A DNA stretch of 64,000 nucleotides, taken from Candidatus Peribacterales bacterium (GTDB taxonomy: Bacteria > Patescibacteriota > Gracilibacteria > Peribacterales > Peribacteraceae). The stretch covers positions 29,614 to 93,613 of the forward strand of contig DATDWL010000004.1 in the NCBI GenBank assembly GCA_035289645.1. The letters run 5' to 3'. A program made the position numbers and the translations under genes. The notes below the pieces were generated by a model. It was not told where the DNA came from. It searched no databases and saw only the letters and a program-made list of their open reading frames with translations. Positions 1,299-49,556 of the stretch are shown here, piece by piece (positions within the stretch are counted from its first letter, which is position 1; every line of letters begins with the position of its first letter).

Positions 1299-2204
1299 AT
1301 GGTGAAGGTGTCGCTTCAGAATAGGCTCCCCACCACCTACCGCGTCGCCGCCATACGTCAGGAAACAGAACATGTGAAGACCTTCACATTCCCCGTGAGT
1401 TTTGGTGCTCTTCCGGGACAATTCATTATGGTATGGCTCCCGGGGTTTGATGAAGTGCCGATGAGTGTTGCCATGGATGATGGCACGGTGACAAAAATGA
1501 CGTTTTTCGATGTCGGCGATTTGACGAAGGAACTTTTTAAGTTAACGAAAGGAGATCTGGTGGGGCTTCGCGGTCCGTTTGGTACGCACTACGAATGGGA
1601 GAAAAACCAGCATTTGATCCTTGTCGCCGGCGGTTATGGCGCCGCTCCCATGTACTTTGTCGCTCAGGAAGCAGTGAAGGATGGTTGCACAGTTGATTTT
1701 GTCGTCGGTGCACGCGGAAAAGAACACCTCCTCTATCTCGATGAAATCAAAGGGCTGAAGAATACGACGCTCCATATTGCAACGGATGATGGATCGGTGG
1801 GGCATAAGGGGTATAACACGGAGGTATTGGAGAAGTTGCTTCATGAAAATGCTTCGTCTCCGCGCCGCAGTGTCATGCTGAGCGAAGTGAGCGAAGCGAA
1901 CGAAGACGAAGCACATGTGCGGCGCTCCGCTCAGCATGACACTTTTTTATCAGTCTTCGCCTGCGGTCCGGAAATGATGATGAAGCGGATCTCCGTGATC
2001 TGTGCAGAACGAAATGTCCCCTGCTTTATGAGTTTGGAGCGCTACATGAAGTGCGGCTACGGCCTCTGCGGCAATTGCGTAGTGGACCCCTTAGGCATTC
2101 GCCTCTGTACTGATGGCCCCGTTGTTTCGAACGATATCATTCAAAGCATCAAAGAATTCGGCACATACCACAGGGACGCACTCGGGAAAAAACACAATTT
2201 TTAA
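1299..2204 (+). CDS. pyrK: Dihydroorotate dehydrogenase electron transfer subunit, with an in-frame palindromic insert
   Basis: PGQFIMVW, RGPFG, VAGGYGAAP, ACGP, and ERYMKCGYGLCGNC...LCTDGPV 2Fe-2S motif; adjacent to pyrD. Confidence 0.93.
   Translation: MVKVSLQNRLPTTYRVAAIRQETEHVKTFTFPVSFGALPGQFIMVWLPGFDEVPMSVAMDDGTVTKMTFFDVGDLTKELFKLTKGDLVGLRGPFGTHYEWEKNQHLILVAGGYGAAPMYFVAQEAVKDGCTVDFVVGARGKEHLLYLDEIKGLKNTTLHIATDDGSVGHKGYNTEVLEKLLHENASSPRRSVMLSEVSEANEDEAHVRRSAQHDTFLSVFACGPEMMMKRISVICAERNVPCFMSLERYMKCGYGLCGNCVVDPLGIRLCTDGPVVSNDIIQSIKEFGTYHRDALGKKHNF
1869..1943. repeat. Palindromic element, type A (GTCATGCTGAGCG ends), inside pyrK
   Basis: Perfect 16-bp inverted repeat agtgtcatgctgagcg (1869-1884) / cgctcagcatgacact (1928-1943). 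Confidence 0.9.
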
Positions 2205-2205
2205 C

Positions 2206-2304
2206 ACGTCATGCCAAGCGAAAGCACGCTTTTCTCGGGCGAGTGAATCCGCCGTGGTGGACGAATCAATCGAGAGACAATGTGCTGAAGCCAAAGCACA
2301 TCGC
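2206..2304 (+). repeat. Degenerate type A arm with a nested degenerate type B arm
   Basis: acgtcatgccaagcg ... aagcacatcgc encloses ttctcgggcgagtgaatccgccgtggtggacgaatcaatcgagagac (about 2232-2278), which resembles 25728-25775. Confidence 0.7.
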
Positions 2305-2322
2305 AACCGAAATAATATTCTC

Positions 2323-2655
2323 CTAAACCTTAGGCGATCCTTCGATTCCATCTGAATGATGGAGGAGAAAAAGCCTGCGCCATACATCCAGAGCGGCTGC
2401 TGCCACGATAAGAATCATCGCTGCGAACAGTACTCCAAACACGGCGCTCGAATTCTCTGTAACGGCATCACGCACCTGTATATACGACGCAGAATCCTTG
2501 ACGATAGAAGGCAATATCGAAGCACTCATATCCGTGGGGCTGACAGAAAATTGTGTATTACTTGTAAAGAGTCCGTAGAAGAAGAAAAGGACACCCGCAA
2601 CCGCAAGTGAAACCGCAGAGAGCCTTAAACGACGATCAACATCAATAGTGTTCAT
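2323..2655 (-). CDS. Hypothetical membrane protein (2 TM)
   Basis: 110-aa ORF with two hydrophobic segments. Confidence 0.55.
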   Translation of the reverse strand: MNTIDVDRRLRLSAVSLAVAGVLFFFYGLFTSNTQFSVSPTDMSASILPSIVKDSASYIQVRDAVTENSSAVFGVLFAAMILIVAAAALDVWRRLFLLHHSDGIEGSPKV

Positions 2656-2756
2656 GTGTGTGTTTGATATCGGGATATCATAGCAGAATCACCAGTTTTA
2701 GCCAAGAGGATGGGTACAGGAGAGTTTTACGGAGGATGCGATCTAGTAGATTTCCT

Positions 2757-2784
2757 TTGACATGCCCATTCGCTATGGCATAAT
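2757..2784 (+). promoter_or_regulatory. Sigma70-type promoter
   Basis: TTGACA (2757-2762), 16-nt spacer ending in TGg, CATAAT (2779-2784). Confidence 0.65.
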
Positions 2785-2868
2785 CGGGTCAACAGGATCC
2801 TTCGTCTAGTGCCAGTACGGTAACGGGAAGGAGAACTGTCACTCTTATTTTCCTTCTCTTTCTCTCGT

Positions 2869-3156
2869 ATGGCTGATCAGGAGATCACATGCCGCGACTG
2901 CGGCGCTACATTCACCTTCACAGAAGGTGAGCAGGAATTCTACGCGACGAAGGACCTCTCCGCTCCACAGCGGTGCAAGGCCTGTCGCGACAAGCGTAAG
3001 TCCGACCGCAATGGCGGTGGAGGACCACGCCAAATGCACGATGCCGTGTGTGCAAAATGCGGCAACTCGTGCCAAGTCCCATTTAAGCCACGTCCCGTGG
3101 AGGAAGGCGGTAAGCCTGTCCTCTGCCGCGACTGCTTTATGGCGGAGCGCGGTTAA
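2869..3156 (+). CDS. Zinc-ribbon / CxxC-x17-CxxC domain protein
   Basis: ITCRDCGATFTFTEGEQEFY...PQRCKACR and CAKCG...VPFKP...VLCRDCF. Confidence 0.88.
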   Translation: MADQEITCRDCGATFTFTEGEQEFYATKDLSAPQRCKACRDKRKSDRNGGGGPRQMHDAVCAKCGNSCQVPFKPRPVEEGGKPVLCRDCFMAERG

Positions 3157-3173
3157 TCACCACGATTCGTAAG

Positions 3174-3205
3174 AAAAAGAGGGACCGAAAGGTTCCTCTT
3201 TTTTT
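3174..3205. terminator. Rho-independent terminator, probably bidirectional
   Basis: aaaaagagggacc-gaaa-ggttcctcttttttt between convergent genes. Confidence 0.8.
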
Positions 3206-3324
3206 ATGAAGTGGTGTCTATAAGAAAAGAAGCTCAAAGATATTGAAAAAAAGCATGGCTTCTAACCATAGAGACTCCGGGGTTTCCCACTTATCCACTC
3301 TATCCGTCGTTCAGATGATAAAGC

Positions 3325-3885
3325 CTACCTCCTCTTCATCATAAAGAACGCCCCGATCGCATTCAAAAGAAATACGGTAAACGCCATGAGTGGAATCGTG
3401 ATGTAATCGAAACTGAAGAAGGGTGAGGCAGCACAGGAAACACCCGTATCATCACAGGGCTCCAACGCATCTACATTCCCTGCTTTGACTTCGAACACGG
3501 CTTGGATCTGCTCGGAGTAATGATATGCGGCGATGATTCCACCGATGACCGCGAGGATGAGGATGTACGGCGCAATGCCGCGATCCTTCTTCCAGAGTGC
3601 AAACCCAAGGAGCAGAACCTGCGGATACATAAATATTCGTTGGAGCCAACACAGCTTGCAGGGTGTCCACAGTGCGATCTCCGAGAAGTAGAGGCTCCCT
3701 GCGGTTGCGAGGGTGGCAGTGATGAGCATGAGGAGAAGTCCATGGGATGAAACCCACGAAATAACTGCGTCAGCGCGAGTGGATTTCTTTTGAAACAGGT
3801 AGGAGGCGATAAGAAGAATCGCAAGAACTTGGCCCACAATCGTGAGTATCGCGTACGACCGAACAATGACATCCGTCAGGAACAT
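3325..3885 (-). CDS. Disulfide bond formation protein (DsbB/BdbC family)
   Basis: GSLYFSE...PCKLCWLQRIFMYP, second Cys pair, TIPLMA. Confidence 0.9.
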   Translation of the reverse strand: MFLTDVIVRSYAILTIVGQVLAILLIASYLFQKKSTRADAVISWVSSHGLLLMLITATLATAGSLYFSEIALWTPCKLCWLQRIFMYPQVLLLGFALWKKDRGIAPYILILAVIGGIIAAYHYSEQIQAVFEVKAGNVDALEPCDDTGVSCAASPFFSFDYITIPLMAFTVFLLNAIGAFFMMKRR

Positions 3886-3999
3886 GCGACTATTCTATGC
3901 TCCACTGCGAAGCCGCTGCAACATGCGCTGTGTGCAGCCTCCTTGCCATGCTCTGCGTTTATGGAATATCGTACACAGGATTTCTTCCCCATCACTCCC

Positions 4000-4497: not shown

Positions 4498-4545
4498 AGG
4501 ATCTGCGTGATTCCGCGATTAGCAGAACAGCCGTATACTTCCGCC

Positions 4546-5235: not shown

Positions 5236-5270
5236 AAGAGTATCTCAACACGTTATAATGTGTTCACAAA

Positions 5271-5478
5271 CGTCATGCTGAGCGGAGTGGAGCGCCCGAT
5301 AGGGCGCGGAGCGCAGTCGAAGCACATCGCGAGGGTGAATTATATCATCATCAGCCTTCATATGAATTATGGTACATACACCAAACGGTGATGTTTGATG
5401 GAAGTGAGTGATCAGTCGCGACGTGCTTCGACTTCGCCCTTCGTCCGCCATGGGCGGACTCGGGCTTCGCTCAGCATG
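5271..5478. repeat. Type A arm pair (REPIN/MITE-like) around an AT-rich spacer
   Basis: cgtcatgctgagcg...agtcgaagcacatcgcga [spacer] tcgcgacgtgcttcgact...cgctcagcatg. Confidence 0.9.
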
Positions 5479-5600
5479 GGCATCTCGGTCTAAAACTTTA
5501 CCTTTGAGTCCCAGACAGCGTTCTTGAGGATAGGGTTTTGGAGAACCGAGGGCAGCACGGTCGCAGCTCTAAGCCAAAAGAAAAAATCTAAAGAAAACGC

Positions 5601-5629
5601 TTGAAATACGTTTCTTCATAAAGTACCAT
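5601..5629 (+). promoter_or_regulatory. Possible sigma70 promoter
   Basis: TTGAAA, 17-nt spacer, TACCAT. Confidence 0.45.
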
Positions 5630-10387: not shown

Positions 10388-10636
10388 TTATGTATCTGAT
10401 AGCGTAACGAGCTTTTCTTTTTCCGCCTTGCTCCACGTCTTCACCTCCGCCTCCCTGTGACGGGCATCTTTGAGTAATGCGAATTCTTCGTGGTAGATGA
10501 TGGCGATCGGTCTCCGAGAGCGCGTGTACTTGGCACCCTTCCCCTCGTTATGCTTTGCTTCACGGGCTTTAAGATCGATGCAGGATCCAGAGTAGAGCGA
10601 TGTATCGCTGCAGCGGGCAAGATAGAAGTAGGGCAT
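10388..10636 (-). CDS. Small GIY-YIG nuclease (UPF0213/YazA-like)
   Basis: YFYLARCSD.SLYSG...R...HNEGKGAKYTRSRRP...REAEVK. Confidence 0.9.
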   Translation of the reverse strand: MPYFYLARCSDTSLYSGSCIDLKAREAKHNEGKGAKYTRSRRPIAIIYHEEFALLKDARHREAEVKTWSKAEKEKLVTLSDT

Positions 10637-25677: not shown

Positions 25678-25723
25678 GGCGCGCAGTGTAGCACATGGTG
25701 AACAAATGTCCACCATAAATGAC

Positions 25724-26144
25724 ACTTTTCTCGAGCGAGTGAATCCGCCTTTGGCGGATGAACGAGTCGAGAGACAAACCGATGGTACACTGCATTCCTT
25801 ATGTCCACTGGACCCTATTACCTCTACATCATCGAATGTAGTAATGGAAAATACTACACAGGATCGACATCGAATATAGAAAAGCGATGGAAAGAGCACT
25901 GTGATGGGATGGGATGTACCTACACACGGAAATATCCACCAAAAAAACTTGCCTTTGTAAAAGAATTTCAAAGTATCTTTGAAGCTCGTGACAAGGAGAA
26001 GCAAGTGAAAGACTGGAGTCAGGAGAAAAAAAGGAAACTCATTACTGGAGAATGGGAGTAAATGACAAGTCTCTCGACTGCCCGTCACTTACATACATTA
26101 CCTCCATCGTCGGTCACATGTGATATGGATCGCTCGAGAAAAGT
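25724..26144. mobile_element. Putative mini mobile element: GIY-YIG gene between two inverted type B palindromic arms
   Basis: 15-bp perfect terminal IR acttttctcgagcga (25724-25738) / tcgctcgagaaaagt (26130-26144); 11-bp inner IR agtcgagagac (25765-25775) / gtctctcgact (26069-26079). Mobility is inferred. Confidence 0.7.
25801..26061 (+). CDS. Small GIY-YIG nuclease (UPF0213-like)
   Basis: YLYIIECSNGKYYTGST..IEKR..EH..G.G..YT.KY.P......EF.....A...EKQVK.WS..KK..LI. Confidence 0.92.
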   Translation: MSTGPYYLYIIECSNGKYYTGSTSNIEKRWKEHCDGMGCTYTRKYPPKKLAFVKEFQSIFEARDKEKQVKDWSQEKKRKLITGEWE

Positions 26145-26165
26145 TTTGTGTGGCATCAAATTAAT

Positions 26166-32595: not shown

Positions 32596-33060
32596 TTACT
32601 CGTGATGATACTTTCCTCCTCTTCCTCTATCCAAAGCCCTGTAGAGCGCCTCGAAGAAGATGAGTCGGCAGAGTTCGTGCGGCAAGGTCATGGAGGAGAG
32701 CCGAAGGAGGAGATCTGCCTTCTCGCGCACTCTCTCATCAAATCCATACGCACCACCGATCACGAATGTCACAGAGCGACCGAAATCTTTGTGCTCCACC
32801 AAAAACTCTGCAAAGGCATCGGTCGTTAAATCTTTCCCATGCTCATCGAGGAGAACGAGGACATCCTCGCCGCCAAATGATTTGAGCAGACGATCGGATT
32901 CTTCGCGTACCTGTCGCTCGGGTCTGTTTTCTTTGCTTGCAGGGAGCTCTTCCACATCGAACATGGCCATCGGGGAGAATCGCTTACGATAATCGCTGCA
33001 GCCATCACGAACCCATGAGGTTTTGAGCGTGCCAACGGTGATGAGGCGGATGCGTTGCAT
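32596..33060 (-). CDS. rlmH: 23S rRNA (pseudouridine-1915-N3)-methyltransferase
   Basis: LITVG.LK, LDE.GK, F.IGGAYG, LS.MTLPH.L.R....EALYRA......YH; start at ATG 33060. Confidence 0.93.
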   Translation of the reverse strand: MQRIRLITVGTLKTSWVRDGCSDYRKRFSPMAMFDVEELPASKENRPERQVREESDRLLKSFGGEDVLVLLDEHGKDLTTDAFAEFLVEHKDFGRSVTFVIGGAYGFDERVREKADLLLRLSSMTLPHELCRLIFFEALYRALDRGRGGKYHHE

Positions 33061-34589
33061 TATGGCTTTCCTCGAGCGAATGAATCCGAACGGAGTGAGG
33101 ATGAATGAGTCGAGAGGCCTCTCGACTCGTCCGTCGCGACGGACTCGCTCGAGGAAAGCAAAACACCCACCAATCCCCACACTGTATATGCCACAGCCGA
33201 ATCTTCCCACGCATGGAGGAAGAGCGACGCGATGCTGATTCCCAAAAATGCAAGAAAAGCCGGTGAAACATTGATGATGGAAAGCCGTTTGAGAATTATG
33301 AAGCAGAGCGCAAGAAAGAGCGCAAAACCAAGAATCCCAAGTTCGAGACCGATTTGAATGTACCAATTTTCCGGGAGAAGCGGACAATGACACTCTTTTT
33401 GATCAATGGTTGGCTGAACCTGGGTGCGGCCAATAAAAAGACAGAGATCAGACCGATCCTTCGCCCAGCTTGTATCCGCTCCTTCATCAAAGTACAAGCA
33501 TGTATCACTGACTCTATTACTCGCAGGACCAGCAGAACCAAGACCAAACCCGAGTGGATTCTGAATCATGGTCACGATCCCCTCTCGTACGCGCTCGATA
33601 TGATGGCGATTCGAAATACTGCGCTCGATAAGTGATGGCATCGTAGCCATGAGAGTGATAATCGCGAGTATCACAATGGAAAAAAGTGTCATCAATATGT
33701 GCATTCTCCGCTTTCCGTGAATATTCACACTGATCGCAATGACCGTGATCACAAATGCAGCAATCCATGCGGAGCGGGAGAAAGTGAGAAGGAGGGCGAA
33801 TGCGATGAGAAGAAGGAATGGAATGTTTCGTCTTCGGCGCGCTGTGTCATCCTGAGCGAAGCCGGAGCGAAGCGACGGCGAAGACGAAGGGCGGTACAGC
33901 GCGCCTTCGCTCAGCATGACACATAGTCCCACACTCCAAGGTATCAGCAGCCATAATCCAAATTGATTCGGTCCGGAAAACGTGGACTGGATGCGACGAA
34001 TGCCGGTATTCGAGATATGCTGAAATGCGGAAAGGGATGAGCCCGGCGCATAGATGGAATGCGCATCGCTGTAGCCGAGTGTCGTGAAGAATCCCTGCGG
34101 GAGGAAAAATGTAAGAATACCATACGCAGCAACAATTCCTCCGATGATGAATACAGCTGGATACATTCTCTTCTCTAAAAAATCCTGATCCCATGGGAGC
34201 CACGCGAGGAGGAGGAAAAAAATGAGCGGAATAAAATCATACTTAAACCCAAACACAAATTGTGTGAGTGACGATGGCGCGCCATTGATGAAAAGAATAA
34301 TGGCAACAGCGAGCAGACCAAGAATGCACCACGTCGGTGCATCGAGACGAAACTTCCATCGTCCACCCTTGATCATTATGAGAACACTCTTCCAATCTGC
34401 CATCGCAAGCTCAACAATGCCAACGAGAAAAATGAACGCAATAAGCACCTCCTTCCAGATTGCAAGAAGTGGCATCGGCGCATGGCCGTATCCTTCGATC
34501 AACCGAGTTCCCACTGTCACAAAGAGTGCATGGAGCGGGAGGAGGACGAAGAGGATCAGGAGGAAATGATGACGTAGTTTGCGGAGCAC
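33060..34589 (-). CDS. O-antigen ligase (WaaL/Wzy_C) family membrane protein with two palindromic inserts
   Basis: RI.STFSGPN..G, LTFSRSAW, P.G.GLG, ENWY.Q...E.G..G; GTG start 6 nt after TATACT. Confidence 0.85.
   Translation of the reverse strand: MLRKLRHHFLLILFVLLPLHALFVTVGTRLIEGYGHAPMPLLAIWKEVLIAFIFLVGIVELAMADWKSVLIMIKGGRWKFRLDAPTWCILGLLAVAIILFINGAPSSLTQFVFGFKYDFIPLIFFLLLAWLPWDQDFLEKRMYPAVFIIGGIVAAYGILTFFLPQGFFTTLGYSDAHSIYAPGSSLSAFQHISNTGIRRIQSTFSGPNQFGLWLLIPWSVGLCVMLSEGALYRPSSSPSLRSGFAQDDTARRRRNIPFLLLIAFALLLTFSRSAWIAAFVITVIAISVNIHGKRRMHILMTLFSIVILAIITLMATMPSLIERSISNRHHIERVREGIVTMIQNPLGFGLGSAGPASNRVSDTCLYFDEGADTSWAKDRSDLCLFIGRTQVQPTIDQKECHCPLLPENWYIQIGLELGILGFALFLALCFIILKRLSIINVSPAFLAFLGISIASLFLHAWEDSAVAYTVWGLVGVLLSSSESVATDESRGLSTHSSSLRSDSFARGKP
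33065..33159. repeat. Empty type B arm pair (no GIY-YIG), encoding the ligase C-terminus
   Basis: gctttcctcgagcga (33065-33079) / tcgctcgaggaaagc (33145-33159); centre gagtcgagag-gc-ctctcgactc. Confidence 0.9.
33843..33923. repeat. Type A element inside the O-antigen ligase gene
   Basis: tgtgtcatcctgagcgaag / cttcgctcagcatgacaca, one mismatch. Confidence 0.88.
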
Positions 34590-34637
34590 AACGAAAGTAT
34601 AGCGTGTCACAGTGTCACACAATTCCTAGCCCCAACC

Positions 34638-36023
34638 CTAGCCCACATTCAATCTCCCCTCCTCCGTCCTATACACTTCCCCACTTTCAAGCACCTTCAT
34701 CACAATATCGATCGATTTCTTGCTCACGTCGTTGCCATAAATCTTCGGCGCTTTCTTCATGGCCTCATTCCCCCACGCGTATTTGATAATATTCGCGATT
34801 GCGGTGGAATCGACCGGCGGCGCGATGAGGTTGCCTCCACCGAGAATACTCTCCGATCGATCCGATCCAAAGCGGAGCGTCACGCAGGGAATGCCAAGTG
34901 CATTCATTTCTTCCTGCATCGATCCGCTATCCGTTGCGCACACGGCGGCTCTGCTCATTGCAGCAATAACATCCACGTACTCCGGCCACACATCCGAGAG
35001 AATAAAGTGTGGATATTTTTTAGCAAGCATTTCGATTTCGGTGGTGAGCCCAAAGCGTTCGAATGCCATCTTCGTTTGATTCATGTTGATGAGGAGAACT
35101 TTTCTCCCCTCTTCGATGAGCATCTTCATAGCGCCATAGATCGCCATGAATCTCTTTTGATCTGTGCAGTTCTCTCGGCGGTGGATGCAGAATCGTACAA
35201 AGTCGCCGTCCTTGAGTATGGGATACCGATCAAACACCGTTGATTGATCGATACGACTCATCGCTTCCTCCATGGCATCGGCAACGGAATTTCCAACGAC
35301 AAAAATGCGATCCTCTGGAAACCCCTCCGCAAGCAGAAACTCTCGATCGAGTTCTACCGGTGCAAAATGGATGCCCGTCGCGCACTCACTGCAACGCGTA
35401 TTAAATTGCTCGGGATAAGGCTCGAGTGACCCACGCGTCCAGTTCTTCCGATCCATGAGGAATGTCCTCCACAAGTCGCCGAGCTCTACTACGTCATGCT
35501 GAGCGAAGTCCGAGGCATGAGCCGAGGACGAAGTCGAAGCACGTCGCGAGGACATCACTTTTTTCCACTCGCTGTAATCCGGCGTCAGTGTCCTAATCCC
35601 CGCCTCCACATGGACTGATGCACATTGATGGCAGTAGCCGGCATTACTTGCCGCCATCGCCGTTGTTGTATCGCCATGGACATACGGAATGACAATTTTG
35701 CCGCGAGCTTTGAGCTCGGCGATGATATGCCCAAGGCGTCCGATGATCTGCGAGACAACTTCGTGCATGTGCCCGCGCACATTCAAATTAAAATCCGGCT
35801 CCACGCCGAATTCTTTCAACATTCCTCCGCTTAAGTTTTCATCGTAGTGCTGACCTGTGTGGCCGAGGAGAACGCACGCCCCGCGCTTTTTGAGTTCTTT
35901 GTAGAGTGGGATTTGTTTGATGATATCCGGCTTCGTTGCAATCATGATGAGGTGCACATGGGCATCTGTATGATTGGCGCAATCATCGTAGAACCTCTGT
36001 GAGCGGTAGGTAATATCTTCCAT
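34638..36023 (-). CDS. wecB: UDP-N-acetylglucosamine 2-epimerase, with an in-frame insert
   Basis: ATKPDIIK, HTGQHYD, VHGDT, HVEAGIRT, PE.FN, HRREN, TDSG.MQEE. Confidence 0.9.
   Translation of the reverse strand: MEDITYRSQRFYDDCANHTDAHVHLIMIATKPDIIKQIPLYKELKKRGACVLLGHTGQHYDENLSGGMLKEFGVEPDFNLNVRGHMHEVVSQIIGRLGHIIAELKARGKIVIPYVHGDTTTAMAASNAGYCHQCASVHVEAGIRTLTPDYSEWKKVMSSRRASTSSSAHASDFAQHDVVELGDLWRTFLMDRKNWTRGSLEPYPEQFNTRCSECATGIHFAPVELDREFLLAEGFPEDRIFVVGNSVADAMEEAMSRIDQSTVFDRYPILKDGDFVRFCIHRRENCTDQKRFMAIYGAMKMLIEEGRKVLLINMNQTKMAFERFGLTTEIEMLAKKYPHFILSDVWPEYVDVIAAMSRAAVCATDSGSMQEEMNALGIPCVTLRFGSDRSESILGGGNLIAPPVDSTAIANIIKYAWGNEAMKKAPKIYGNDVSKKSIDIVMKVLESGEVYRTEEGRLNVG
35491..35549. repeat. Single type A arm inside wecB
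   Basis: acgtcatgctgagcgaag...gaagtcgaagcacgtcgcga. Confidence 0.88.
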
Positions 36024-38798: not shown

Positions 38799-41120
38799 GT
38801 GCCAGCGAATCTCGTCATTGTGGAATCTCCTGCAAAGGCAAAAACCATTAAAAAATTTCTTGGGAAGGATTTCGCCGTGGAAGCAAGCATGGGTCATGTG
38901 CGCGATTTGCAGGAGAAAAAATTGAGCGTCGATGTGAAGAATAATTACGAGCCGACCTACGAAATTCCCGAGGGGAAAAAAACAGTGATCAAAAATCTAC
39001 AGAAAGCGATGAAGACTGCCGAGCACCTCTGGATCGCGACTGATGAAGACCGCGAAGGGGAGGCAATCGGTTGGCATCTTCTCCACGCGCTCAAAGTGCC
39101 GGTGAAGGAACATAAGAGCGTCAAACGCATCGTCTTCCACGAGATCACGAAGGAAGCGATCGAAGCAGCGATAGGAAACCCGCGCACGATTGATCAAAAA
39201 CTCGTAGAGGCGCAGCAAGCACGGCGCATTCTCGATCGCTTGGTGGGGTACACGCTCTCGCCATTCCTCTGGGCGAAAGTATACCGAGGCCTTTCGGCAG
39301 GCCGCGTGCAATCTGTTGCCGTGCGGATTATTGTGGATCGCGAGAAGGAGATTCAAGCATTCAAATCAGATGAATACTGGACGATTGATGCGGAACTGCA
39401 AACGAGTGGTAAAGAAATTTTTCAAGCATCACTCACAAAGCTCAATGGAAAAAAGTACGTACCGGACAACGAGAAGGATGCAACAGCCGTAGTCGAAGCG
39501 GTGCAGGGGAAAAAGTTTTCCGTCCACGAGATCGAAGAAAAGAAGGTGCAGAAAAATCCTTCTCCTCCGTACACAACGTCCACTCTCCAGCAGGATGCTT
39601 CGAATAAACTTGGCTTCTCGGTAAAGCAAACCATGGTCGTCGCCCAGCAACTCTACGAAGGCGTGAACCTTGGGAAGGGCGAGGGGCAGACCGGTCTCAT
39701 CACCTACATGCGTACGGATTCCGTGAATTTGAGCGCGAAGGCTCTCACCGATTCCGAAGAGATGATTCAGAAACTCTTTGGACGCGAATATATTTTAAGC
39801 AAGCCCCGCACGTTCCAAACGAAAAGTAAAAATGCACAAGAGGCCCACGAAGCGATTCGTCCAACAGAGCTCCACAGAACGCCCGAAAGTCTTGCCGGAG
39901 TGCTCGATGATCCTCAACTCAAACTCTATACGCTGATCTGGAAGCGAACGATGGCAACGCAAATGCCCGCAGCGGAATTGAAGCGCGTGGGAGCCGATAT
40001 TGCCGCCGCGGAGTATATGTTTCGCGCAACGGGACAGACGGTGGAATTTGATGGGTATTTGAGGGTGTATGAAGAAGAGGATGATACCCAGAGCTTAGGT
40101 GAAAAATTCCTCCCCAAGCTTGCAGAGGGACAGGAACTCACGTGCACCGGAATACTGCCGGAGCAGCACTTCACTCAGCCGCCGGCTCGCTACACAGAGG
40201 CTTCACTCGTGAAGAAGTTGGAAGAAGAAGGCATCGGCCGTCCGAGCACCTATGCTCCAACGATCAGTACCGTTCAACAGCGCGGCTATATTCGGAAAGA
40301 TGGAAGACAGCTCATTCCAGAAACCGTCGCATTTACGGTCACCGATCTTTTGATCGCGCACTTCCCCGATATTGTCGACCTCAAATTCACCGCCAAAGTC
40401 GAGGACTCGCTCGATGAAATCGCAACGGGAAAAGTGGAATGGGTACCCTTTATGGATTCATTTTTTAAACCGTTTAGCGCCCTCATCGAAAAAAAGAAGG
40501 AGGAAGTAAAGAAGGAAGATGTCCTCAAAGAAGCAATTCTTGGCAACGATCCGAAGACCGGATTCGAAGTCATCGTGCGCACGGGAAGATTCGGCAACTA
40601 CGTGCAGCTTGGTCGGCCGGAAGATTACAAAGGCACCAAGAATAAGCCGAAGAGTGCATCACTCCCGAAAGGTATCGTGAAGGAAGAGGCAACGCTCGAG
40701 CAGGCGCTGTCGCTCCTCAGCTTCCCAAGAATCCTCGGGGAAAAGGATGGTCAGGATGTCTCGGCAAATCTTGGCCGCTTTGGTCCGTATCTGCGGTGGG
40801 GAACAGTGACAGTCACGCTGCCGCCCGAGGTCGATCCCACACATGTGACGCTTCAGGAGGCTGAAACATTGATTGCAGAAGCAGCGGAGAAGCGGAAGCA
40901 AATGGCTGAACCAATCCAGAAGCTTGGCGCTGATCCAACGAGCAGTGGAGAAATTCTGGTGAAGACCGGCCGCTACGGGCCGTACGTCACCGATGGCAAA
41001 ACGAACGCATCGCTTGGGAAGAAATTTGATCCGAAGACTCTCACCCGTGACGAAGCAATCGAGATCTTGGTAAAAAAGCGCGCCCGCGGTCCCGGAAGAA
41101 AATGGGGGAAGAAGAAGTAA
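38799..41120 (+). CDS. topA: DNA topoisomerase I
   Basis: LVIVESPAKAKTI, ATDEDREGE, SAGRVQS, ITYMRTDS, GRFGPY C-terminal repeats. Confidence 0.97.
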   Translation: MPANLVIVESPAKAKTIKKFLGKDFAVEASMGHVRDLQEKKLSVDVKNNYEPTYEIPEGKKTVIKNLQKAMKTAEHLWIATDEDREGEAIGWHLLHALKVPVKEHKSVKRIVFHEITKEAIEAAIGNPRTIDQKLVEAQQARRILDRLVGYTLSPFLWAKVYRGLSAGRVQSVAVRIIVDREKEIQAFKSDEYWTIDAELQTSGKEIFQASLTKLNGKKYVPDNEKDATAVVEAVQGKKFSVHEIEEKKVQKNPSPPYTTSTLQQDASNKLGFSVKQTMVVAQQLYEGVNLGKGEGQTGLITYMRTDSVNLSAKALTDSEEMIQKLFGREYILSKPRTFQTKSKNAQEAHEAIRPTELHRTPESLAGVLDDPQLKLYTLIWKRTMATQMPAAELKRVGADIAAAEYMFRATGQTVEFDGYLRVYEEEDDTQSLGEKFLPKLAEGQELTCTGILPEQHFTQPPARYTEASLVKKLEEEGIGRPSTYAPTISTVQQRGYIRKDGRQLIPETVAFTVTDLLIAHFPDIVDLKFTAKVEDSLDEIATGKVEWVPFMDSFFKPFSALIEKKKEEVKKEDVLKEAILGNDPKTGFEVIVRTGRFGNYVQLGRPEDYKGTKNKPKSASLPKGIVKEEATLEQALSLLSFPRILGEKDGQDVSANLGRFGPYLRWGTVTVTLPPEVDPTHVTLQEAETLIAEAAEKRKQMAEPIQKLGADPTSSGEILVKTGRYGPYVTDGKTNASLGKKFDPKTLTRDEAIEILVKKRARGPGRKWGKKK

Positions 41121-41123
41121 CCG

Positions 41124-41229
41124 CTTTTCTCGCCTGCCCGCCGAGGTGGGAGCGAGTGCTGAGCGAGTCCGCCTTTGGCGGACGAGTCGAAGAACGAGTC
41201 GAGAGACGGTGCAATCTCGCTCGAGAAAA
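41124..41229. repeat. Composite type B element with a nested inner arm and an 18-bp micro-element
   Basis: ttttctcg[cctgcccgccgaggtggg]agcgagt gctgagcg...agtcgaag aacgagtcgagagac ... ctcgctcgagaaaa. Confidence 0.85.
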
Positions 41230-41767: not shown

Positions 41768-42223
41768 ATGCAGCTCTCGCACCTTCGTGGCCGCAAGATT
41801 GTTGATCGCGTACGCAGTAAAGGCGCACGTTTTCGCGGAAAACACATGAATATCACATATGTCATGGGAATGCCTCGCACGACAATGGGGAAGAACCTCT
41901 CGACTCACTCATCCTTCGACGGACGCTACGCGTCCGCTCAGGATTCGTTCGCTCCCACCTCGGTGGGCAGGCAAGGAAAGCATTTTTTCGTCGGCACCAC
42001 CGCTTCCACCAAGCTCGATAAATCTGCAGTGAGGAGAAATCGCATGCGTCGACGCTGCCGTGAAGCACTCAGACTTACTGCGAAAGAACGACAAAAATTA
42101 CCTGTATGCCAATTGCTCATCTCGCCGCGTTCCTCTAGCCTAGATTGCGCATTCCAAGAGCTCCAGCGCGATGCGGTGGAATTTCTTACGTCGCTGGAGA
42201 AGACGCATATACACCGTTCGTAA
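41768..42223 (+). CDS. rnpA: Ribonuclease P protein component, with a roughly 28-aa repeat-derived insert
   Basis: VG...STKLDKSAVRRNRMRRRCREA (RNR motif); position between rpmH and yidC. Confidence 0.92.
   Translation: MQLSHLRGRKIVDRVRSKGARFRGKHMNITYVMGMPRTTMGKNLSTHSSFDGRYASAQDSFAPTSVGRQGKHFFVGTTASTKLDKSAVRRNRMRRRCREALRLTAKERQKLPVCQLLISPRSSSLDCAFQELQRDAVEFLTSLEKTHIHRS
41896..41981 (-). repeat. Composite type B arm inside rnpA
   Basis: Reverse complement gctttccttg[cctgcccaccgaggtggg]agcgaacga atcctgagcg...gtcgaaggat gagtgagtcgagagg. Confidence 0.85.
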
Positions 42224-45147: not shown

Positions 45148-46509
45148 CTACACCATCCTTTCTGGATCCAACATTTTCTTAAGTTTCGCTTTGGGAATAG
45201 TCGTTCTCCACGATGCAACCTCCAGAATCGTCTCTCCTTTCGCCATAGCCTCTTTCGCAATCTCCGCTGCTTTTTCGTACCCGATCAGAGGCGTAAGAGC
45301 TGTGACAAGCATTGGGCTCCTCTCCAGGCGATATTTGATACTCACAGAATTCGCTTTGAGCCCATGCATGCATTTTGTTGCAAAAACATGAGTGACATTC
45401 GTGAGAAGCATCATGGTGGTATGGAGCTTGGAAGCAATGACTGGATATCCTGTACAAAGCTCAAATCTGCTTATATACGCAATAGATTGCGTAATCGTAA
45501 CATCGCCCCCCATGATGAACGCAGCGACTTGCTCCACGCTTTCGCAGAGAACAGGGTTTACTTTGCCGGGCATGATGGAGGATCCCGCTTGAAGCTCTGG
45601 AAGGATGAGTTCGGCAATGGCATCCGATCCCATCAGGCGGATATCACTCGCAATCTTTGTGAGGACGATGGCGACTTCGATAAGAGCAGAGCTGAGAGAT
45701 TTGAGTGCGAGAGGACAGGACTGCGCTGCGATATGATCCTCGGCTTCGTCGAGCGGAAGCTGTGTCTCTTTTTTGAGTGCCGCAATGACTCGCTTTGCAA
45801 ACTGGGGATGTGCATTGATCCCTGTGCCAACCGCCGTACCGCCGAGCGGAAGAATGCAGAGCTTTTCTATAGCCTGTGTGAGTGATTCAATCACCTGTAC
45901 AAGGAGTGATGAGTACGATCGGAATTCATCGGAAAGCCGAATGGGGGCTGCATCCATAAGGTGCGTACGACCGACTTTGATGATGGGAGCAAACTCTTTC
46001 TCCTTCCTCGAAAGCTCTTTGATGAGGAGCATAAGCGCAGGAATGAGTTCATCACGAACCTTGAGTGCACTGCTGATCTGCAGAGCGCTTGGAATCACAT
46101 CATTACTCGATTGGCATCGATTTACATGATCGTTGGGGTGAATTTGAGCCGCTTTTCTCGAGCGAGCGAATCCGCCATCAGCGGATGAGCGAGTCGAGAG
46201 ACCTATCGACTGATTGGCAAGCTCTGCAATCACCTCATTCATATTCATATTCGTGCTCGTCCCCGACCCTGTCTGGAAAATATCCACAGGGAATTGATCG
46301 AGGTGGCTCCCTCTTTTGATCGAAGAAGCAGCCTTTGTGATAGCTGCAGCATGACTCTTTGGGATTTCTCCGAGCGCTCCATTCACCATCGCTGCATGCG
46401 CTTTTATAAGCGCAAGCGCCATGAGGAATTGGGGCGGCATCCGCCATCCGGAGATGGGGAAGTTCTTCATTGCAGCCTCCGTATGCTTTCCGTAGGGTTT
46501 TTTTGGCAC
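45148..46509 (-). CDS. fumC: Class II fumarate hydratase (FumC/AspA family), with an in-frame insert
   Basis: QTGSGTSTNMNMNEV, HPNDHVN..QSSND, GRTHLMDA, GSSIMPGKVNP. Confidence 0.88.
   Translation of the reverse strand: MPKKPYGKHTEAAMKNFPISGWRMPPQFLMALALIKAHAAMVNGALGEIPKSHAAAITKAASSIKRGSHLDQFPVDIFQTGSGTSTNMNMNEVIAELANQSIGLSTRSSADGGFARSRKAAQIHPNDHVNRCQSSNDVIPSALQISSALKVRDELIPALMLLIKELSRKEKEFAPIIKVGRTHLMDAAPIRLSDEFRSYSSLLVQVIESLTQAIEKLCILPLGGTAVGTGINAHPQFAKRVIAALKKETQLPLDEAEDHIAAQSCPLALKSLSSALIEVAIVLTKIASDIRLMGSDAIAELILPELQAGSSIMPGKVNPVLCESVEQVAAFIMGGDVTITQSIAYISRFELCTGYPVIASKLHTTMMLLTNVTHVFATKCMHGLKANSVSIKYRLERSPMLVTALTPLIGYEKAAEIAKEAMAKGETILEVASWRTTIPKAKLKKMLDPERMV
46151..46202. repeat. Single type B arm inside fumC
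   Basis: gcttttctcgagcgagcgaatccgccatcagcggatgagcgagtcgagagac, closely similar to 25725-25775. Confidence 0.9.
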
Positions 46510-46614
46510 AGAAGGGAAAATAAATGCTGCCTGATGGTACCAGAGTTGCTAATGTATTTTATAGAATAATTTGACATTTTTATCAAAAAATTGTATTATT
46601 CAACATAAAGGGAT

Positions 46615-47373
46615 ATGCATCACAAACACCACCATCATCACATTGGAGCTATTTCACTCGTACCGCTCCTCCTTCTCCTCATTGTACCGCAATGGGGCAA
46701 AGCGACGATGGCACCGACAATCGAACACTATCGCACACTCGCAGAGCGCGCGGAGCAGGAGATGCAGGTTCTCGATTTCACATTCGCCAACTTGCAGCGA
46801 TCAACAAGCCTCCTGAAAAATGCTGAGGAGACAGTCTCGTTCCCCTCTGTGGTACGGCAACACAACTTGCATTCATTTTCATCCGAAACAGATCGGTACG
46901 ATCTTGCATCGGCTCGAAATAGCACACTCAAACAGCGCATTGATGTGATGCGGAAACGACAGGAGGAAGAACTAGGGAATCTGCGTGGTATCTATATTGA
47001 TCTGAGCGAACAAGAAGCAACACTGTTTGATGAAAACGGCATCCGCACAAAGTATCGCGTAAGCTCCGGCGCCGCGGATACCCCCACTCCTCGCGGACAA
47101 TTTAAAATTCATAGGAAACAAACGCTCCGAGTGAGCAGCCAAGATGTCCCCTACCGCATGCCCAATTATATGGCATTTACGGAAAGCGAAAGTCATGGAC
47201 TCCATGCCTTGCCGTACCTTGGCAACGGACCTGAGTCTTCGGCATTTTGGCACGAAGCGCGCACTCACATTGGGCGACCTGTCAGCCATGGATGCGTGCG
47301 ACTATTGCCGGAAGATGCAGCAGCGCTGTTTGAATGGGCAGAGGTGGGGATGCCGGTGATTATTCATAGTTGA
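46615..47373 (+). CDS. L,D-transpeptidase (YkuD family)
   Basis: IDLSEQ, VSSG...TPTP.G.F, GLH, G.PVSHGCVRL. Confidence 0.9.
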   Translation: MHHKHHHHHIGAISLVPLLLLLIVPQWGKATMAPTIEHYRTLAERAEQEMQVLDFTFANLQRSTSLLKNAEETVSFPSVVRQHNLHSFSSETDRYDLASARNSTLKQRIDVMRKRQEEELGNLRGIYIDLSEQEATLFDENGIRTKYRVSSGAADTPTPRGQFKIHRKQTLRVSSQDVPYRMPNYMAFTESESHGLHALPYLGNGPESSAFWHEARTHIGRPVSHGCVRLLPEDAAALFEWAEVGMPVIIHS

Positions 47374-47376
47374 AAT

Positions 47377-47437
47377 GGGTATCTGGTATTAGGCAGGCAA
47401 CATGGATGATGCCTAATACTTAATACCTAATACTTAG
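47377..47437. repeat. Inverted pair of 7-mer tandem arrays
   Basis: gggtatc tggtatt aggca ... tgcctaa tacttaa tacctaa tacttag. Confidence 0.7.
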
Positions 47438-47466
47438 TCGCTCTTCGCGCTACACTACACACGAAT

Positions 47467-48270
47467 ATGCGCCGCATCTTCCTCACTATTATTTGGCTCA
47501 TAACAGATGCACTCATCTTCGTCGGTGCCTACAGCGTGGCATACTTCCTTAAGGTCGGTTGGATTTTTTCGAGTGATCTTCCGTTCGAAACATTTTTTAC
47601 AGCAACACTGATGACCGTTGGCGGCTGGCTGATCGTCATGATCACCATGCGTAACCTCGCGCTCAGCCGTATTCAAATGAGCCCGCGGAACTTCGCCTAC
47701 ATCGCCTATGCCTGCATTATTGGCATGGCAGGGTTCGCTCTTTCCTTCTATTTCCTCAAACAAACCTTATTCTCGCGATTGCTGCTCCTCCTCGCAGGAA
47801 CGCTCTCACTCATCTTTGTCTGTATGTGGCACATCCTCTTCGATCAGATTCAGCGGAGAATTTTAAGGATGAATCCCCCTACGTACCCTCTCCTTGTGAT
47901 CGGGACGAATCGCGAAGCAGAGCGACTCATCGAGAAGCTCCAAAGGAAGCGGTCTCCCATCGTTCCCGTTGCGATTCTGGATGGCAAAGGCACATCGAAA
48001 ACGAACATCGATGGGATCCCCGTGCTCGGGAAGCTCGATAAACTGGAGCAAACGATTGATGAGAAAAAGATCACACACCTCGTGCAGTGCGATCAGATCG
48101 AGCACTCGCTCAATCTTCTCTCCGTATGTCGATCGAAGGGAATTACCTACATGCTCCTCCCCTACACGCTCGGCATCATCGAAGATCGGGTCCCTGCAGA
48201 AGCACTCGAAGGAAAACAGGTTGTGGCGGTGCCACGGGGAACGTCACGACTCGGATGGTTCTTCCGGTGA
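47467..48270 (+). CDS. WcaJ/WbaP-like N-terminal membrane and Rossmann-like region without the catalytic transferase domain
   Basis: Four TM, FSRL, LLVIGT, GIPVLG.LD.L. Confidence 0.7.
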   Translation: MRRIFLTIIWLITDALIFVGAYSVAYFLKVGWIFSSDLPFETFFTATLMTVGGWLIVMITMRNLALSRIQMSPRNFAYIAYACIIGMAGFALSFYFLKQTLFSRLLLLLAGTLSLIFVCMWHILFDQIQRRILRMNPPTYPLLVIGTNREAERLIEKLQRKRSPIVPVAILDGKGTSKTNIDGIPVLGKLDKLEQTIDEKKITHLVQCDQIEHSLNLLSVCRSKGITYMLLPYTLGIIEDRVPAEALEGKQVVAVPRGTSRLGWFFR

Positions 48271-48285
48271 GGTAGACTGTCACTG

Positions 48286-49377
48286 ATGCACGCCTTCATC
48301 CTCGCCGGTGGATTTGCCACACGACTGTGGCCGCTCACGGAAAAGAGAGCAAAGCCTCTCTTGCCGCTTGCGGGGGTTCCTCTCCTCACCCATCTTGTCG
48401 AAAAGATTCCTGCAGGAATTCCAATCACAGTGAGTACGAATGCAAGATTTGCAGAGGATTTTGAGGAGTGGAAACATTCACGTCATGCTGAGCGGAGTGA
48501 AGCTTCGCAGAGCGAAGCGGAACGAAGTCGAAGCACGTCGCAAGGATCAGAAGAATCAGCACCGAACTCAATGCGAGATGCTTCGACTCCGCCCTTGCAG
48601 GGCTCCGCTCAGCATGACGTATCTATACTTATTGAAGACTCCGGCCACGAAGATGAAAAATTGGGAGCACTCGGCGCTGTTGCAAAATGGATCGTGGAGG
48701 AAAAAATCGATGATGATGTTCTGCTCCTCGCAGGGGATAACTACATGGGATTTTCGATTGCATCGTTCATTGAACGCTTCACGGGGAAACCTCTCCTTGC
48801 CGCATACGATATTCGATCAAAGGAAGCGGCAAAAAAGTTCGGCATTGTTCTTACGGAGAACTCATCGAATGCATCCGGGACAATTCGTGTAACGGGATTC
48901 CAAGAAAAACCGGCGGAGCCTCAATCGACTCTCATTTCCACTGGATGCTATTTGCTTCCTGCGGAATCGCTCCAAGAGCTCATGAGTTTTTCTCAATCGC
49001 ATCCCGATAACATCGGTGGTGTCTTCGAGCATTTCCTCAGCGAAGGAACGGAAGTGGAATGCGTCTCCTTTGGAGAACCGTGGTTTGATATCGGATCATT
49101 CGACGCATATTTGGAAGCAACAAAAGTTCTCGTGGGAGAGCGGGTGCTGCGCGGGGAAAAAACTCTCGAGCGCGATACGGAGTTCCACGGGAGCAATGTC
49201 ATCGGCGATAACTCCAAAATCGCCCGATCAACGCTCACGAACGTCGTACTGTTTGAACACTGCGAGGTGGAAGACTGCGTGCTCGAAAACTGCATCGTGG
49301 ATGATGGATGCATCCTGCGTGGGGTGGATTTGAGCGGAAAGATGCTACGGGCTGGAACACACCTTGTGCAACGTTAG
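48286..49377 (+). CDS. NDP-sugar pyrophosphorylase (nucleotidyltransferase), with a roughly 47-aa insert
   Basis: ILAGGFATRLWPLT...AKPLLP, AGDN, FQEKP, WFDIG, C-terminal hexapeptide repeats. Confidence 0.92.
   Translation: MHAFILAGGFATRLWPLTEKRAKPLLPLAGVPLLTHLVEKIPAGIPITVSTNARFAEDFEEWKHSRHAERSEASQSEAERSRSTSQGSEESAPNSMRDASTPPLQGSAQHDVSILIEDSGHEDEKLGALGAVAKWIVEEKIDDDVLLLAGDNYMGFSIASFIERFTGKPLLAAYDIRSKEAAKKFGIVLTENSSNASGTIRVTGFQEKPAEPQSTLISTGCYLLPAESLQELMSFSQSHPDNIGGVFEHFLSEGTEVECVSFGEPWFDIGSFDAYLEATKVLVGERVLRGEKTLERDTEFHGSNVIGDNSKIARSTLTNVVLFEHCEVEDCVLENCIVDDGCILRGVDLSGKMLRAGTHLVQR
48480..48620. repeat. Complete type A arm pair inside the nucleotidyltransferase gene
   Basis: 18-bp perfect IR acgtcatgctgagcggag / ctccgctcagcatgacgt; inner agtcgaagca / tgcttcgact. 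Confidence 0.92.
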
Positions 49378-49378
49378 C

Positions 49379-49556
49379 TACGTCATGCTGCCTGCCCTCC
49401 GGAGCAAGAGCGAAGGTGGGAGCGGAGCCCCGAGCTCGGCGAGAGGCGAAGTCGAAGCACCTCGCTAGGCTTACACCATTTCAGAAATCGCGACGTGCTT
49501 CGACTTCATCCTACGCATCCTAAACGGATGCTCCGGATTTCGCTCAGCATGACGTA
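49379..49556. repeat. Intergenic type A arm pair with a 30-bp micro-element in the left end
   Basis: tacgtcatgctg[49391-49420]agcgga...gaagtcgaagcac ... gtgcttcgacttc...cgctcagcatgacgta. Confidence 0.9.

Follow-up and report, generated by a model that had tools for sequence, protein, structure and literature searches.

The window analysed here, a stretch of 64,000 nucleotides (nt) from contig DATDWL010000004.1 of a Candidatus Peribacterales bacterium, carries two kinds of hairpin repeat, type A and type B, whose individual copies (arms) consist of a covarying 4-base-pair (bp) stem around GAGCG and AGTCGA, and two of these arms enclose a gene for a small, single-domain GIY-YIG protein. In the best explanation that we can offer, to which we assign a probability of about 0.7, type A and type B are two sub-families of Ssn-related hairpin motifs within the superfamily of CGTC/TGTC-tagged repetitive extragenic palindromic (REP) sequences, each being the target of its own nuclease, with the gene-less arms as derivative copies. 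The evidence comprises the repeat family itself, the covariation of its stems, its strand asymmetry, its linkage to GIY-YIG genes (here, in relatives and in other phyla), its in-frame residence in genes and its turnover between congeners. Our preferred reading of the arms is as a widely distributed and so far unrecognised variant of the Ssn-related hairpins, with a strand-specific purine zipper as its helix.

Core motif, enrichment and covariation of the stems

The pattern GAGCG-N(4-30)-AGTCGA occurs 16 times in the window; 100 dinucleotide shuffles averaged 1.46, and not one of them reached 16. An earlier note on this DNA had listed about 15 arms with their stems and had reported AGACGA in place of AGTCGA at 1.9 and 33.85 kb. 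Each of the stems was found where the note had placed it, and AGACGA is present at both places (4 matches against 1.48 expected; with 4 of the 100 shuffles reaching 4, this variant is not significant by itself). The arms thus stand and the count does not, since about 20 are present, the additional ones being a decayed nested copy (2204-2306), a long form (26062-26147) and the outer arms of two nested composites.

In the source genome (G000; 1.17 Mb, 19 contigs, completeness 99.5%), a scan for GAGCG-N(3-70)-AG[TA]CGA, with overlapping matches counted and the flanks unconstrained, gave 263 matches, and 86 of these have at least three perfectly complementary flanking pairs; five mononucleotide shuffles together gave 14 (about 3 expected in each). 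The stems are TGCT/AGCA (46 copies), TCTC/GAGA (19), CCTC/GAGG (8), CCCT/AGGG (6), TCCT/AGGA (2) and CTTC/GAAG (1), and there are four three-pair flanks with one copy each (CCT/AGG, CCC/GGG, AAA/TTT and GCA/TGC), of which at least the last two are probably due to chance. The congener G001 adds GTTC/GAAC, and other genera of the order have TACT/AGTA, CCAT/ATGG and TCCC/GGGA, as well as TCCT/AGGA and CCCT/AGGG, with tags that differ too. The exact type A pattern is limited to the genus (45 matches in G000, 8 in G001 and 0 in 39 other relatives). A covariance model (R1) of 75 pooled arms gave 102 matches at E ≤ 1 in G000. At E ≤ 0.001, with up to 33 candidates scored per genome, 92 of 151 genomes of the order had a match, G000 being one of the 92.

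The core was also sought in the genomes of 185,579 species with the pattern GTCAT-N-CT-GAGCG-N(3-33)-AGTCGA-AG-N-A, which leaves one stem pair free. At least 120 loci were found, with 148 arms among the matches listed, and the hosts include Acidobacteriota, Eremiobacterota, Verrucomicrobiota, Bacteroidota, Clostridia, Gammaproteobacteria, Rickettsiales, Thermotogota, Patescibacteria and others. In the 148 listed arms the free pair is Watson-Crick in 140, a wobble in 4 and a mismatch in 4, and the Watson-Crick pairs are of four types (C-G 114, T-A 13, G-C 12 and A-T 1). The four basal pairs are 100% paired in our alignment A1 as well, but because the members of A1 were picked for complementary flanks this figure is descriptive only, and the weight lies on the unconstrained genome scan and the cross-phylum scan.

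Arms flank genes for small GIY-YIG proteins

Nine PF01541 matches were found in G000, four of which are small Ssn-like genes encoding 78-87 residues (Table 1; C-numbers denote contigs of the named genome). The gene at 25801..26061, the product of which has 1zg2 (UPF0213 protein) as its closest solved relative (E 4e-14), lies between a type B arm on the plus strand and a long-form type B arm on the minus strand, and convergent arms flank three of the four Ssn-like genes in all. The expectation of the earlier note that type A arms would flank another GIY-YIG paralogue was confirmed twice, at G000:C2:2920-3410 and in the orthologous cassette of G001 (contig C78), where the protein is 80% identical and arms stand on both sides. 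The type B cassette is kept in another relative, G101, with a protein 85% identical to the 25801..26061 product and flanking type B arms; the long arm of that cassette is on the opposite side of the gene from its position in the window. At 4 of the 120 listed cross-phylum loci an A-type GIY-YIG gene (43-53% identical) stands directly beside an arm, in 2 of them in the order arm(+)-gene-arm(-). Of the neighbouring arm pairs in G000, 18 of 20 are convergent, as in a cassette, and the pairs therefore look like cassettes without the gene.

A strand-specific helix of G.A blocks

The consensus of type A is aCGTCA-TGCT-GAGCG-R-AG...CG-N-AGTCGA-AGCA-C-nTCGCrAGG and that of type B is GCTyTy-CTC-GAGCG-A...G-AGTCGA-GAG-r-C. 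When 74 arms were paired from the base upward, with Watson-Crick, G.T and G.A oppositions and single bulges allowed and with a scoring that favoured G.A among mismatches, the helices were continuous and contained 1124 Watson-Crick, 439 G.A, 22 G.T, 13 A.C and 26 other oppositions. Those of the G.A kind are arranged in tandem steps or, in type A, in G-N-A triples, with one or two Watson-Crick pairs between them. In the invariant part, GAGCGA faces GAG(T)CGA to give G.A, A.G, G-C, a bulged T, C-G, G.A and A.G in succession; the bulged base is A in the TGTC subfamily, and a third G.A step (GTGA facing GAAC) is found in many type B arms. Because the closing pair of the basal stem is always Y-R (82 of 82 arms), each G.A step stands in a 5'-Y-GA-R-3' context on both strands.

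This anatomy bears out the opposing GA/GA beside the stem proposed by the earlier note, for which a sheared geometry may be assumed, and departs from its picture of a fixed internal loop below a freely varying apex: the motif is the base of a helix built of Y-GA-R blocks throughout, and the apical part stays helical, being assembled from these G.A blocks and a restricted range of modules.

The complementary strand served as the control for the G.A-favouring scoring. For the cross-phylum arms, 649 G.A and 87 other mismatches were counted on the top strand, 43 G.T wobbles apart, and 19 G.A, 26 A.C and 496 pyrimidine or like-with-like mismatches on the bottom strand. The fold is strand-specific on this evidence (649 against 19) and, because G.A becomes C.T on the complement, a single strand only can fold to a continuous helix. 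Nearest-neighbour folding of the wider set favoured the top strand in 66 of 74 arms.

Blocks of this kind have precedents in DNA. In the available text of a nuclear magnetic resonance study, consecutive CGAG blocks (C:G, sheared G:A, A:G, G:C) in a pyrimidine-GA-purine context are described as stable hairpin stems of single-stranded DNA (ssDNA) (PMC10085684), and mini-hairpins of the GCGAAGC type, sequences of which are frequent in the arms, are described as unusually stable DNA (PMC13037366). The arms resemble these DNAs in the succession and context of the pairs, their geometry being predicted, but the published molecules are human promoter or synthetic oligonucleotides for which the available text describes no link to a nuclease or mobile repeat (PMC10085684, PMC13037366).

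In G000 the tag and the bulge are linked, CGTCAT going with AGTCGA and TGTCAT with AGACGA. Pairing of the tag with the bulged base was considered and rejected, as the association fails in other genera, and the link is a subfamily mark.

Two families on one core

Separate covariance models were built from type A alone (R2) and type B alone (R3), and each was run on the window, the loci of the other family and the remaining stem types, with own-family loci elsewhere left out. Both score their own families at 50-70 bits. R2 recovers 5 of 21 type B and 8 of 10 other-stem copies at E ≤ 1, and R3 recovers type A weakly (see below). Because of this weak cross-recovery we regard A and B as separate families that share a common core module and stem rule. 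The claim of one structural grammar for both, which the earlier note had let stand or fall with this comparison of models, therefore holds for the core module and the stem rule and fails for a single family, each model recovering the copies of the other family weakly although the pooled R1 does generalise. The G.A core shared by A and B is a new point relative to the known GIY-YIG-linked hairpins.

Arms inside genes and their turnover

Counting an arm as intragenic when its open reading frame (ORF) has at least 60 residues on each side, 34 of 82 arms (41%) lie inside ORFs, 18 in the same sense as the gene and 16 in the opposite sense. The ORFs in the window that read through arms encode a PyrK-like protein, a membrane protein, a UDP-GlcNAc 2-epimerase-like protein, RnpA, a fumarase-family protein and a nucleotidyltransferase; small-genome bacteria thus carry such elements within predicted translated ORFs of essential proteins.

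Comparison with relatives shows that the arms come and go. The fumarase-family arm (46148..46209) adds 18 residues (54 nt; the site does not give its exact ends); the three orthologues that were found to span the site, each of another genus, all lack these residues. The congener G001 lacks the arm pair of the nucleotidyltransferase gene (48.5 kb), has an unrelated palindrome at the site of the 33062-33162 pair and has unrelated sequence in place of the composite arm 33816..33924. In the loop of the epimerase, G000 has a solo type A arm and G001 a type B pair, and the 27 other orthologues have something else or nothing. In comparison with miniature inverted-repeat transposable elements, the convergent pairs give inverted ends, and no duplication is readable at the aligned sites.

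The epimerase (WecB) loop (window 35440-35590; loci L106-L134) is a recurrent landing place, the length of which varies among 29 orthologues, and in at least five genera this surface loop holds palindromic or tandem repeats that differ from one another, all in frame.

Relation to known hairpin systems

The closest counterpart is described by Chenal et al. (Nat Commun 2025), in the available text of which single-domain GIY-YIG proteins (Ssn, cd10448) are flanked by NTS/SRM hairpins, bind these hairpins as ssDNA only and cut a few bases upstream, being inactive on the reverse strand, duplex DNA and RNA (PMC11893778). Binding by SsnA depends most on the C just after the palindrome and cutting depends on three bases upstream (PMC11893778). 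The base directly after the palindrome is C in 43 of 44 type A arms (stems lengthened by an extra A-T pair included), in 21 of 21 type B arms and in 140 of the 148 listed cross-phylum arms, and the 5' tag HGTCWY is matched by type A (CGTCAT or TGTCAT) and unmatched by type B (GCTYTYCTC). Both systems have a single-domain GIY-YIG gene of about 90 residues flanked on both sides by oriented hairpins, a GTC-type tag (here in type A), a C after the palindrome, many gene-less copies and a strand-specific motif (PMC11893778). They differ in that the arms have a 4-bp stem followed by a G.A-block core with a bulge and a long variable extension, in the intragenic share (41%, against 2% for Neisseria NTS) and in the tag of type B (PMC11893778).

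For type A, the kinship with CGTC-tagged REPs suggested by the earlier note is supported by the tag, although the architecture differs. As far as the available text of Di Nocera et al. (BMC Genomics 2013) goes, those REPs have perfect stems of 8-9 bp with loops of 4-5 nt, in place of the 4-bp basal stem, G.A core and variable extension of the arms, and they share with the arms an unpaired CGTC/TGTC tag followed by AT at the start of the stem, a predominance of inverted dimers, some intragenic copies and a distribution over many phyla (PMC3733652). That text reports no transposase adjoining CGTC REPs and no associated enzyme, and GAGCG and GIY-YIG have 0 occurrences each in it (PMC3733652). The earlier note knew of no established mobilising enzyme for such REPs; an associated, and at most putatively mobilising, enzyme has since been published with the Ssn nucleases (2025).

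REP/RAYT systems are the textbook case of hairpin repeats. The REP/REPIN-RAYT systems resemble the arms in having short hairpins as inverted doublets, a flanked single-copy enzyme gene and presumed recognition of ssDNA, as far as the available texts describe them (PMC3733652, PMC11893778). They differ in using an HUH/Y1 transposase in place of a GIY-YIG nuclease, and their GTAG tag is missing from the arms.

Rickettsia palindromic elements (RPE) are inserted in frame in protein genes and translated as extra loops. They resemble the arms as palindromic repeats in frame within protein genes; the arms are shorter (about 50-70 nt; pairs about 140-190 nt), have a host of another phylum and are linked to a nuclease cassette. 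In the available text of Di Nocera et al., CGTC-1 and CGTC-4 are equated with RPE-6 and RPE-4 (PMC3733652).

Searching the literature for the arm consensus as a string returned unrelated primers only (the supplementary lists of Chenal et al., which lie outside this search, may include such arms), and a literature search for GIY-YIG combined with REP and transposase found nothing.

Proposed mechanism

We propose that each arm family would be the ssDNA target of its own small GIY-YIG (Ssn-like) nuclease, the gene of which would be carried in a cassette of the form arm(+)-gene-arm(-), and that gene-less convergent pairs and solo arms would be non-autonomous derivatives, now dispersed over the genome and often in frame inside genes. 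The common grammar would be a helix of 5'-Y-GA-R-3' blocks, with a 4-bp Watson-Crick stem at the base, always closed by Y-R, followed by a pair of tandem G.A steps that enclose G-C/C-G and a single bulged base (A in the TGTC subfamily, otherwise T), then often by more G.A or G-N-A steps, and with an ordinary apical hairpin on top. With one strand alone able to fold, the arm would have a polarity, and cruciforms should be disfavoured in duplex DNA. Binding by the nuclease would take place on the folded strand while the DNA is single-stranded (during replication, repair or uptake); the protein would recognise the invariant core together with the C that follows the stem, and would nick the DNA on the upstream side of the arm. 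Which paralogue acts would be decided by the tag and the basal stem.

Several points weigh against this explanation. Binding and cleavage of the arms by the nucleases are predicted from likeness to Ssn, and type B is without the GTC tag that SsnA requires for cutting. Of the 86 arms none is matched by the published SRM search pattern, which finds 2 places in G000, compared with 2-8 in five shuffles. One of the four Ssn-like genes (10388-10636) has no recognisable arms within 260 nt. R3 recovers about 9 of 44 type A arms at E ≤ 1 and 0 below 0.01. No target-site duplication and no exact empty site were found at four window sites compared with G001 or in the WecB loop of 29 orthologues; a clean empty site is lacking because the sites are too diverged or hold other palindromes and, since neither feature is definable, transposition is something we infer. 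In ViennaRNA DNA folding, ten window arms are modestly stable (z +0.3 to -3.2 in a nearest-neighbour model, which does not credit sheared G.A), and the top strand folds better than the bottom in all ten, yet by 0.3-1.8 kcal/mol only; with z-scores this weak, the stability of the G.A blocks is taken from the literature. Nearest-neighbour folding of type B also prefers a slid register, TCTCGA/TCGAGA. The stems CCTC/GAGG, CTTC/GAAG and GTTC/GAAC (the last in G001) are complementary in the G.A-block register only, and such variants are few.

Alternative explanations

Among the alternatives the one that survives best, although we consider it unlikely, is that the arms are control sites kept by the host, which mark ssDNA for the nuclease and modulate uptake or recombination, as has been proposed for Neisseria NTS. 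Such a role would agree with the modulation of natural transformation by SsnA and NTS in N. meningitidis (PMC11893778) and with the conservation of the core across phyla, but sits poorly with 34 of 82 arms lying in ORFs, rnpA and core enzymes among them, when the Neisseria NTS are intragenic in only 2% of cases (PMC11893778), with positions that differ between congeners and with the nested and decayed copies. Control sites and selfish mobile DNA may nevertheless both be correct descriptions.

We give slightly less credence to the arms acting as RNA, with the G.A core as a protein-binding or stabilising motif (kink-turn-like, terminator or mRNA stabiliser). RNA commonly contains tandem G.A steps as motifs, many arms lie in transcribed genes, and the strand asymmetry suits RNA as well as ssDNA. 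Intragenic arms are, however, unbiased in sense (18 versus 16), pairs are convergent, so that one member is always antisense, and the arrangement of the arms around a nuclease gene resembles that of a transposon. Rfam 15 at gathering score gave one tRNA in the window and no other family. SsnA, in the available text of Chenal et al., does not bind RNA (PMC11893778). The unbiased intragenic arms and the restriction of the related SsnA to ssDNA are the grounds on which we favour DNA; in the proposal of the earlier note that selection acts on a folded ssDNA or RNA shape, the single-strand fold is supported by stem covariation, also in the cross-phylum sample, and its RNA option recedes. The type A consensus resembles a hammerhead ribozyme by eye (GUC, CUGA, GAA), and this candidate was rejected on misfitting core positions and the same Rfam result.

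Mobilisation of the arms as REP-like elements by a Y1 (IS200/RAYT-type) transposase, with the GIY-YIG genes as bystanders, is improbable in our judgement. The REP/RAYT precedent and two PF01797 proteins in the genome (window 55035-55676 and C7:222337-223041) would suit it, but neither of these genes is flanked by type A or B arms, for which reason Y1 was rejected as the partner enzyme, and the arms are without the GTAG tag, while GIY-YIG genes are arm-flanked here, in two relatives and at four listed cross-phylum loci. CGTC REPs, too, have no transposase beside them in the available text of Di Nocera et al. (PMC3733652). The Y1-like gene of the window (55035-55676, plus strand, 213 residues, PF01797) has an inverted repeat about 130 nt upstream (54825-54903; 27 nt, 85% complementary), the sequence of which is unrelated to the arms.

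Least probable by our estimate is that the shared GAGCG/AGTCGA merely reflects inheritance from a recent A/B ancestor or recombination, without structural selection: the few independent stem types within the genome, where related copies make many of the counted compensations inherited, and the poor cross-detection of the A-only and B-only models would fit, but the core persists in many phyla with the free pair complementary in 140 of 148 listed arms and of four types, the helix mismatches are almost only G.A, and the closing pair is Y-R in every one of the 82 arms.

Implications of the proposed nuclease-hairpin pairing

To our knowledge, the Ssn nucleases are the first site-specific ssDNA-only endonucleases, and they are under development as tools. 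Their natural target range has so far been defined by a search pattern for perfect hairpins and, because that published SRM pattern misses the strand-specific G.A-core arms conserved across phyla, part of the natural specificity space has been overlooked. The core offers a concrete structural hypothesis for how a protein of 90 residues reads a folded DNA strand, and folding by one strand only is a possible reason why palindromes are tolerated in duplex DNA and in genes. A bolder extension, which we hold tentatively and with the odds somewhat against it, is that the purine zipper GAGCGA / GAG(T)CGA could be the conserved docking module of a pan-bacterial clade of Ssn-like ssDNA nucleases, with the covarying stem and the tag as an exchangeable address that determines the paralogue by which the DNA is cut. 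A genome of 1.17 Mb would in that case operate two orthogonal nuclease-hairpin pairs built on the same structural chassis, which would amount to a modular code, of natural origin, for cutting ssDNA at specific sites, and one that the published SRM definition misses entirely.

Arms and GIY-YIG genes in the window and elsewhere in the genome

Table 1. Arms of the window and Ssn-like GIY-YIG genes of the source genome. Positions are those of the window unless a contig of G000 is named; bits are scores of the type A (R2) or type B (R3) covariance model.
Feature	Position	Strand	Score	Context
Composite type A arm, TGTC-tagged, AGACGA	1841..1944	-	R2 28.1 bits	In frame in PyrK-like gene (ORF 1299-2204)
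Inverted inner arm in apex of composite 1841..1944	1868-1921	+	R2 42.8 bits	
Decayed nested copy, degenerate type B within type A remnants	2204..2306	+	R2 22.6 bits; R3 33.4 bits at 2225-2285	
Type A arm, CGTCAT tag, TGCT/AGCA	5268..5332	+	R2 66.9 bits	Left of convergent pair
Type A arm, TGCT/AGCA	5416..5485	-	R2 56.6 bits	Right of convergent pair
Fourth Ssn-like GIY-YIG gene, 82-residue ORF	10388-10636	-	PF01541 E 3e-13	
Type B arm, GCTYTYCTC-GAGCGAGTGA-hairpin-GAACGAGTCGA-GAGAC, TCTC/GAGA, three G.A steps	25721..25782	+	R3 62.8 bits	Left arm of GIY-YIG cassette
Single-domain GIY-YIG gene, 86 residues, Ssn-like, B-type	25801..26061	+	PF01541 residues 6-77, E 3.3e-19	
Long-form type B arm	26062..26147	-	R3 33.2 bits	Right arm of GIY-YIG cassette
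Type B arm, CCTC/GAGG	33062..33125	+	R3 61.9 bits	Left of tight convergent pair
Type B arm, CCTC/GAGG	33110..33162	-	R3 60.6 bits	Right of tight convergent pair
Composite TGTC-tagged arm, AGACGA	33816..33924	-	R2 17.5 bits	In frame in membrane-protein ORF 33060-34622
Inverted inner arm in 33816..33924, stem TCCT/AGG	33842-33899	+	R2 22.5 bits	
Solo type A arm, TGCT/AGCA	35489..35549	+	R2 65.6 bits	In frame and antisense in UDP-GlcNAc 2-epimerase-like gene 34638-36023
Type B arm, TCTC/GAGA, extra hairpin CTGCCCGCC..GGTGGGAG and nested inner unit	41120..41214	+	R3 27.7 bits	
Type B arm, same extra hairpin, nested ATCCT/AGGAT unit	41896..41986	-	R3 17 bits	In frame in rnpA 41768-42223
Solo type B arm, TCTC/GAGA	46148..46209	+	R3 62.8 bits	In frame and antisense in fumarase/aspartase-family gene 45148-46509
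Type A arm, TGCT/AGCA	48478..48543	+	R2 71 bits	Left of convergent pair; in frame in nucleotidyltransferase gene 48286-49377
Type A arm, TGCT/AGCA	48571..48622	-	R2 54.4 bits	Right of 48478 pair
Type A arm, TGCT/AGCA, extra CTGCCC..GGTGGGAG hairpin	49378..49467	+	R2 26.7 bits	Left of pair
Type A arm, TGCT/AGCA	49488..49557	-	R2 71.2 bits	Right of 49378 pair
B-type GIY-YIG paralogue, 62% identical to window gene 25801..26061	G000:C7:207370-207624			Between type B-like arms, stem CCTC/GAGG
A-type GIY-YIG paralogue, 40% identical	G000:C2:3050-3295			Between convergent type A arms, cassette C2:2920-3410

A TGCT/AGCA stem is also present at 1.9 kb, the region of the composite 1841..1944. In the decayed copy at 2204..2306, GGGCG and AATCGA stand for GAGCG and AGTCGA, and in the ATCCT/AGGAT unit nested in rnpA (41.9 kb) the 3' motif is CGTCGA. 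The long-form arm at 26062..26147 has the usual type B ends, with the stem TCTC/GAGA, and an AT-richer interior of 62 nt with no clean hairpin. Further long-form type B arms are found at G000:C7:327170-327250, C7:329320-329400, C11:23650-23840 and C11:33515-33600, again with normal ends and with a poorly conserved, AT-richer interior of 62-65 nt in place of the apical hairpin.

The extra hairpin of the arm at 41120..41214 sits between the basal stem and GAGCG. The small hairpin module CTGCCC-N-CC ... GGTGGGAG is present in nine copies in G000 (in the window at 41134-41153, 41951-41970 and 49392-49431), is inserted, in arms of both types, precisely at the junction of the basal stem with GAGCG, and stands alone twice on C11.

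Other GIY-YIG genes were also observed. At G000:C2:66580-67340 the reverse strand carries an array of tRNA-Val-like sequences, of which one copy looks normal and two have hairpin insertions in the D-loop and variable loop, and a second class of small GIY-YIG protein, with a C-terminal FLK-G-G motif, is encoded between these copies. In other genera, tRNA-adjacent GIY-YIG genes are accompanied by duplicated tRNA 3' ends (loci L143, L146, L149 and L161). Near-identical GIY-YIG copies with an in-frame TAG stand at contig ends next to a tRNA gene (G000:C17:34-243 and C18:34-243); they probably represent copies of a broken, repeated element at which the assembly is interrupted. Finally, at G000:C7:301480-302100 a type B arm (CCTC/GAGG) lies in frame in an ORF of 824 residues, the N-terminal part of which holds the ninth PF01541 match and which, from its layout, is a putative UvrC.

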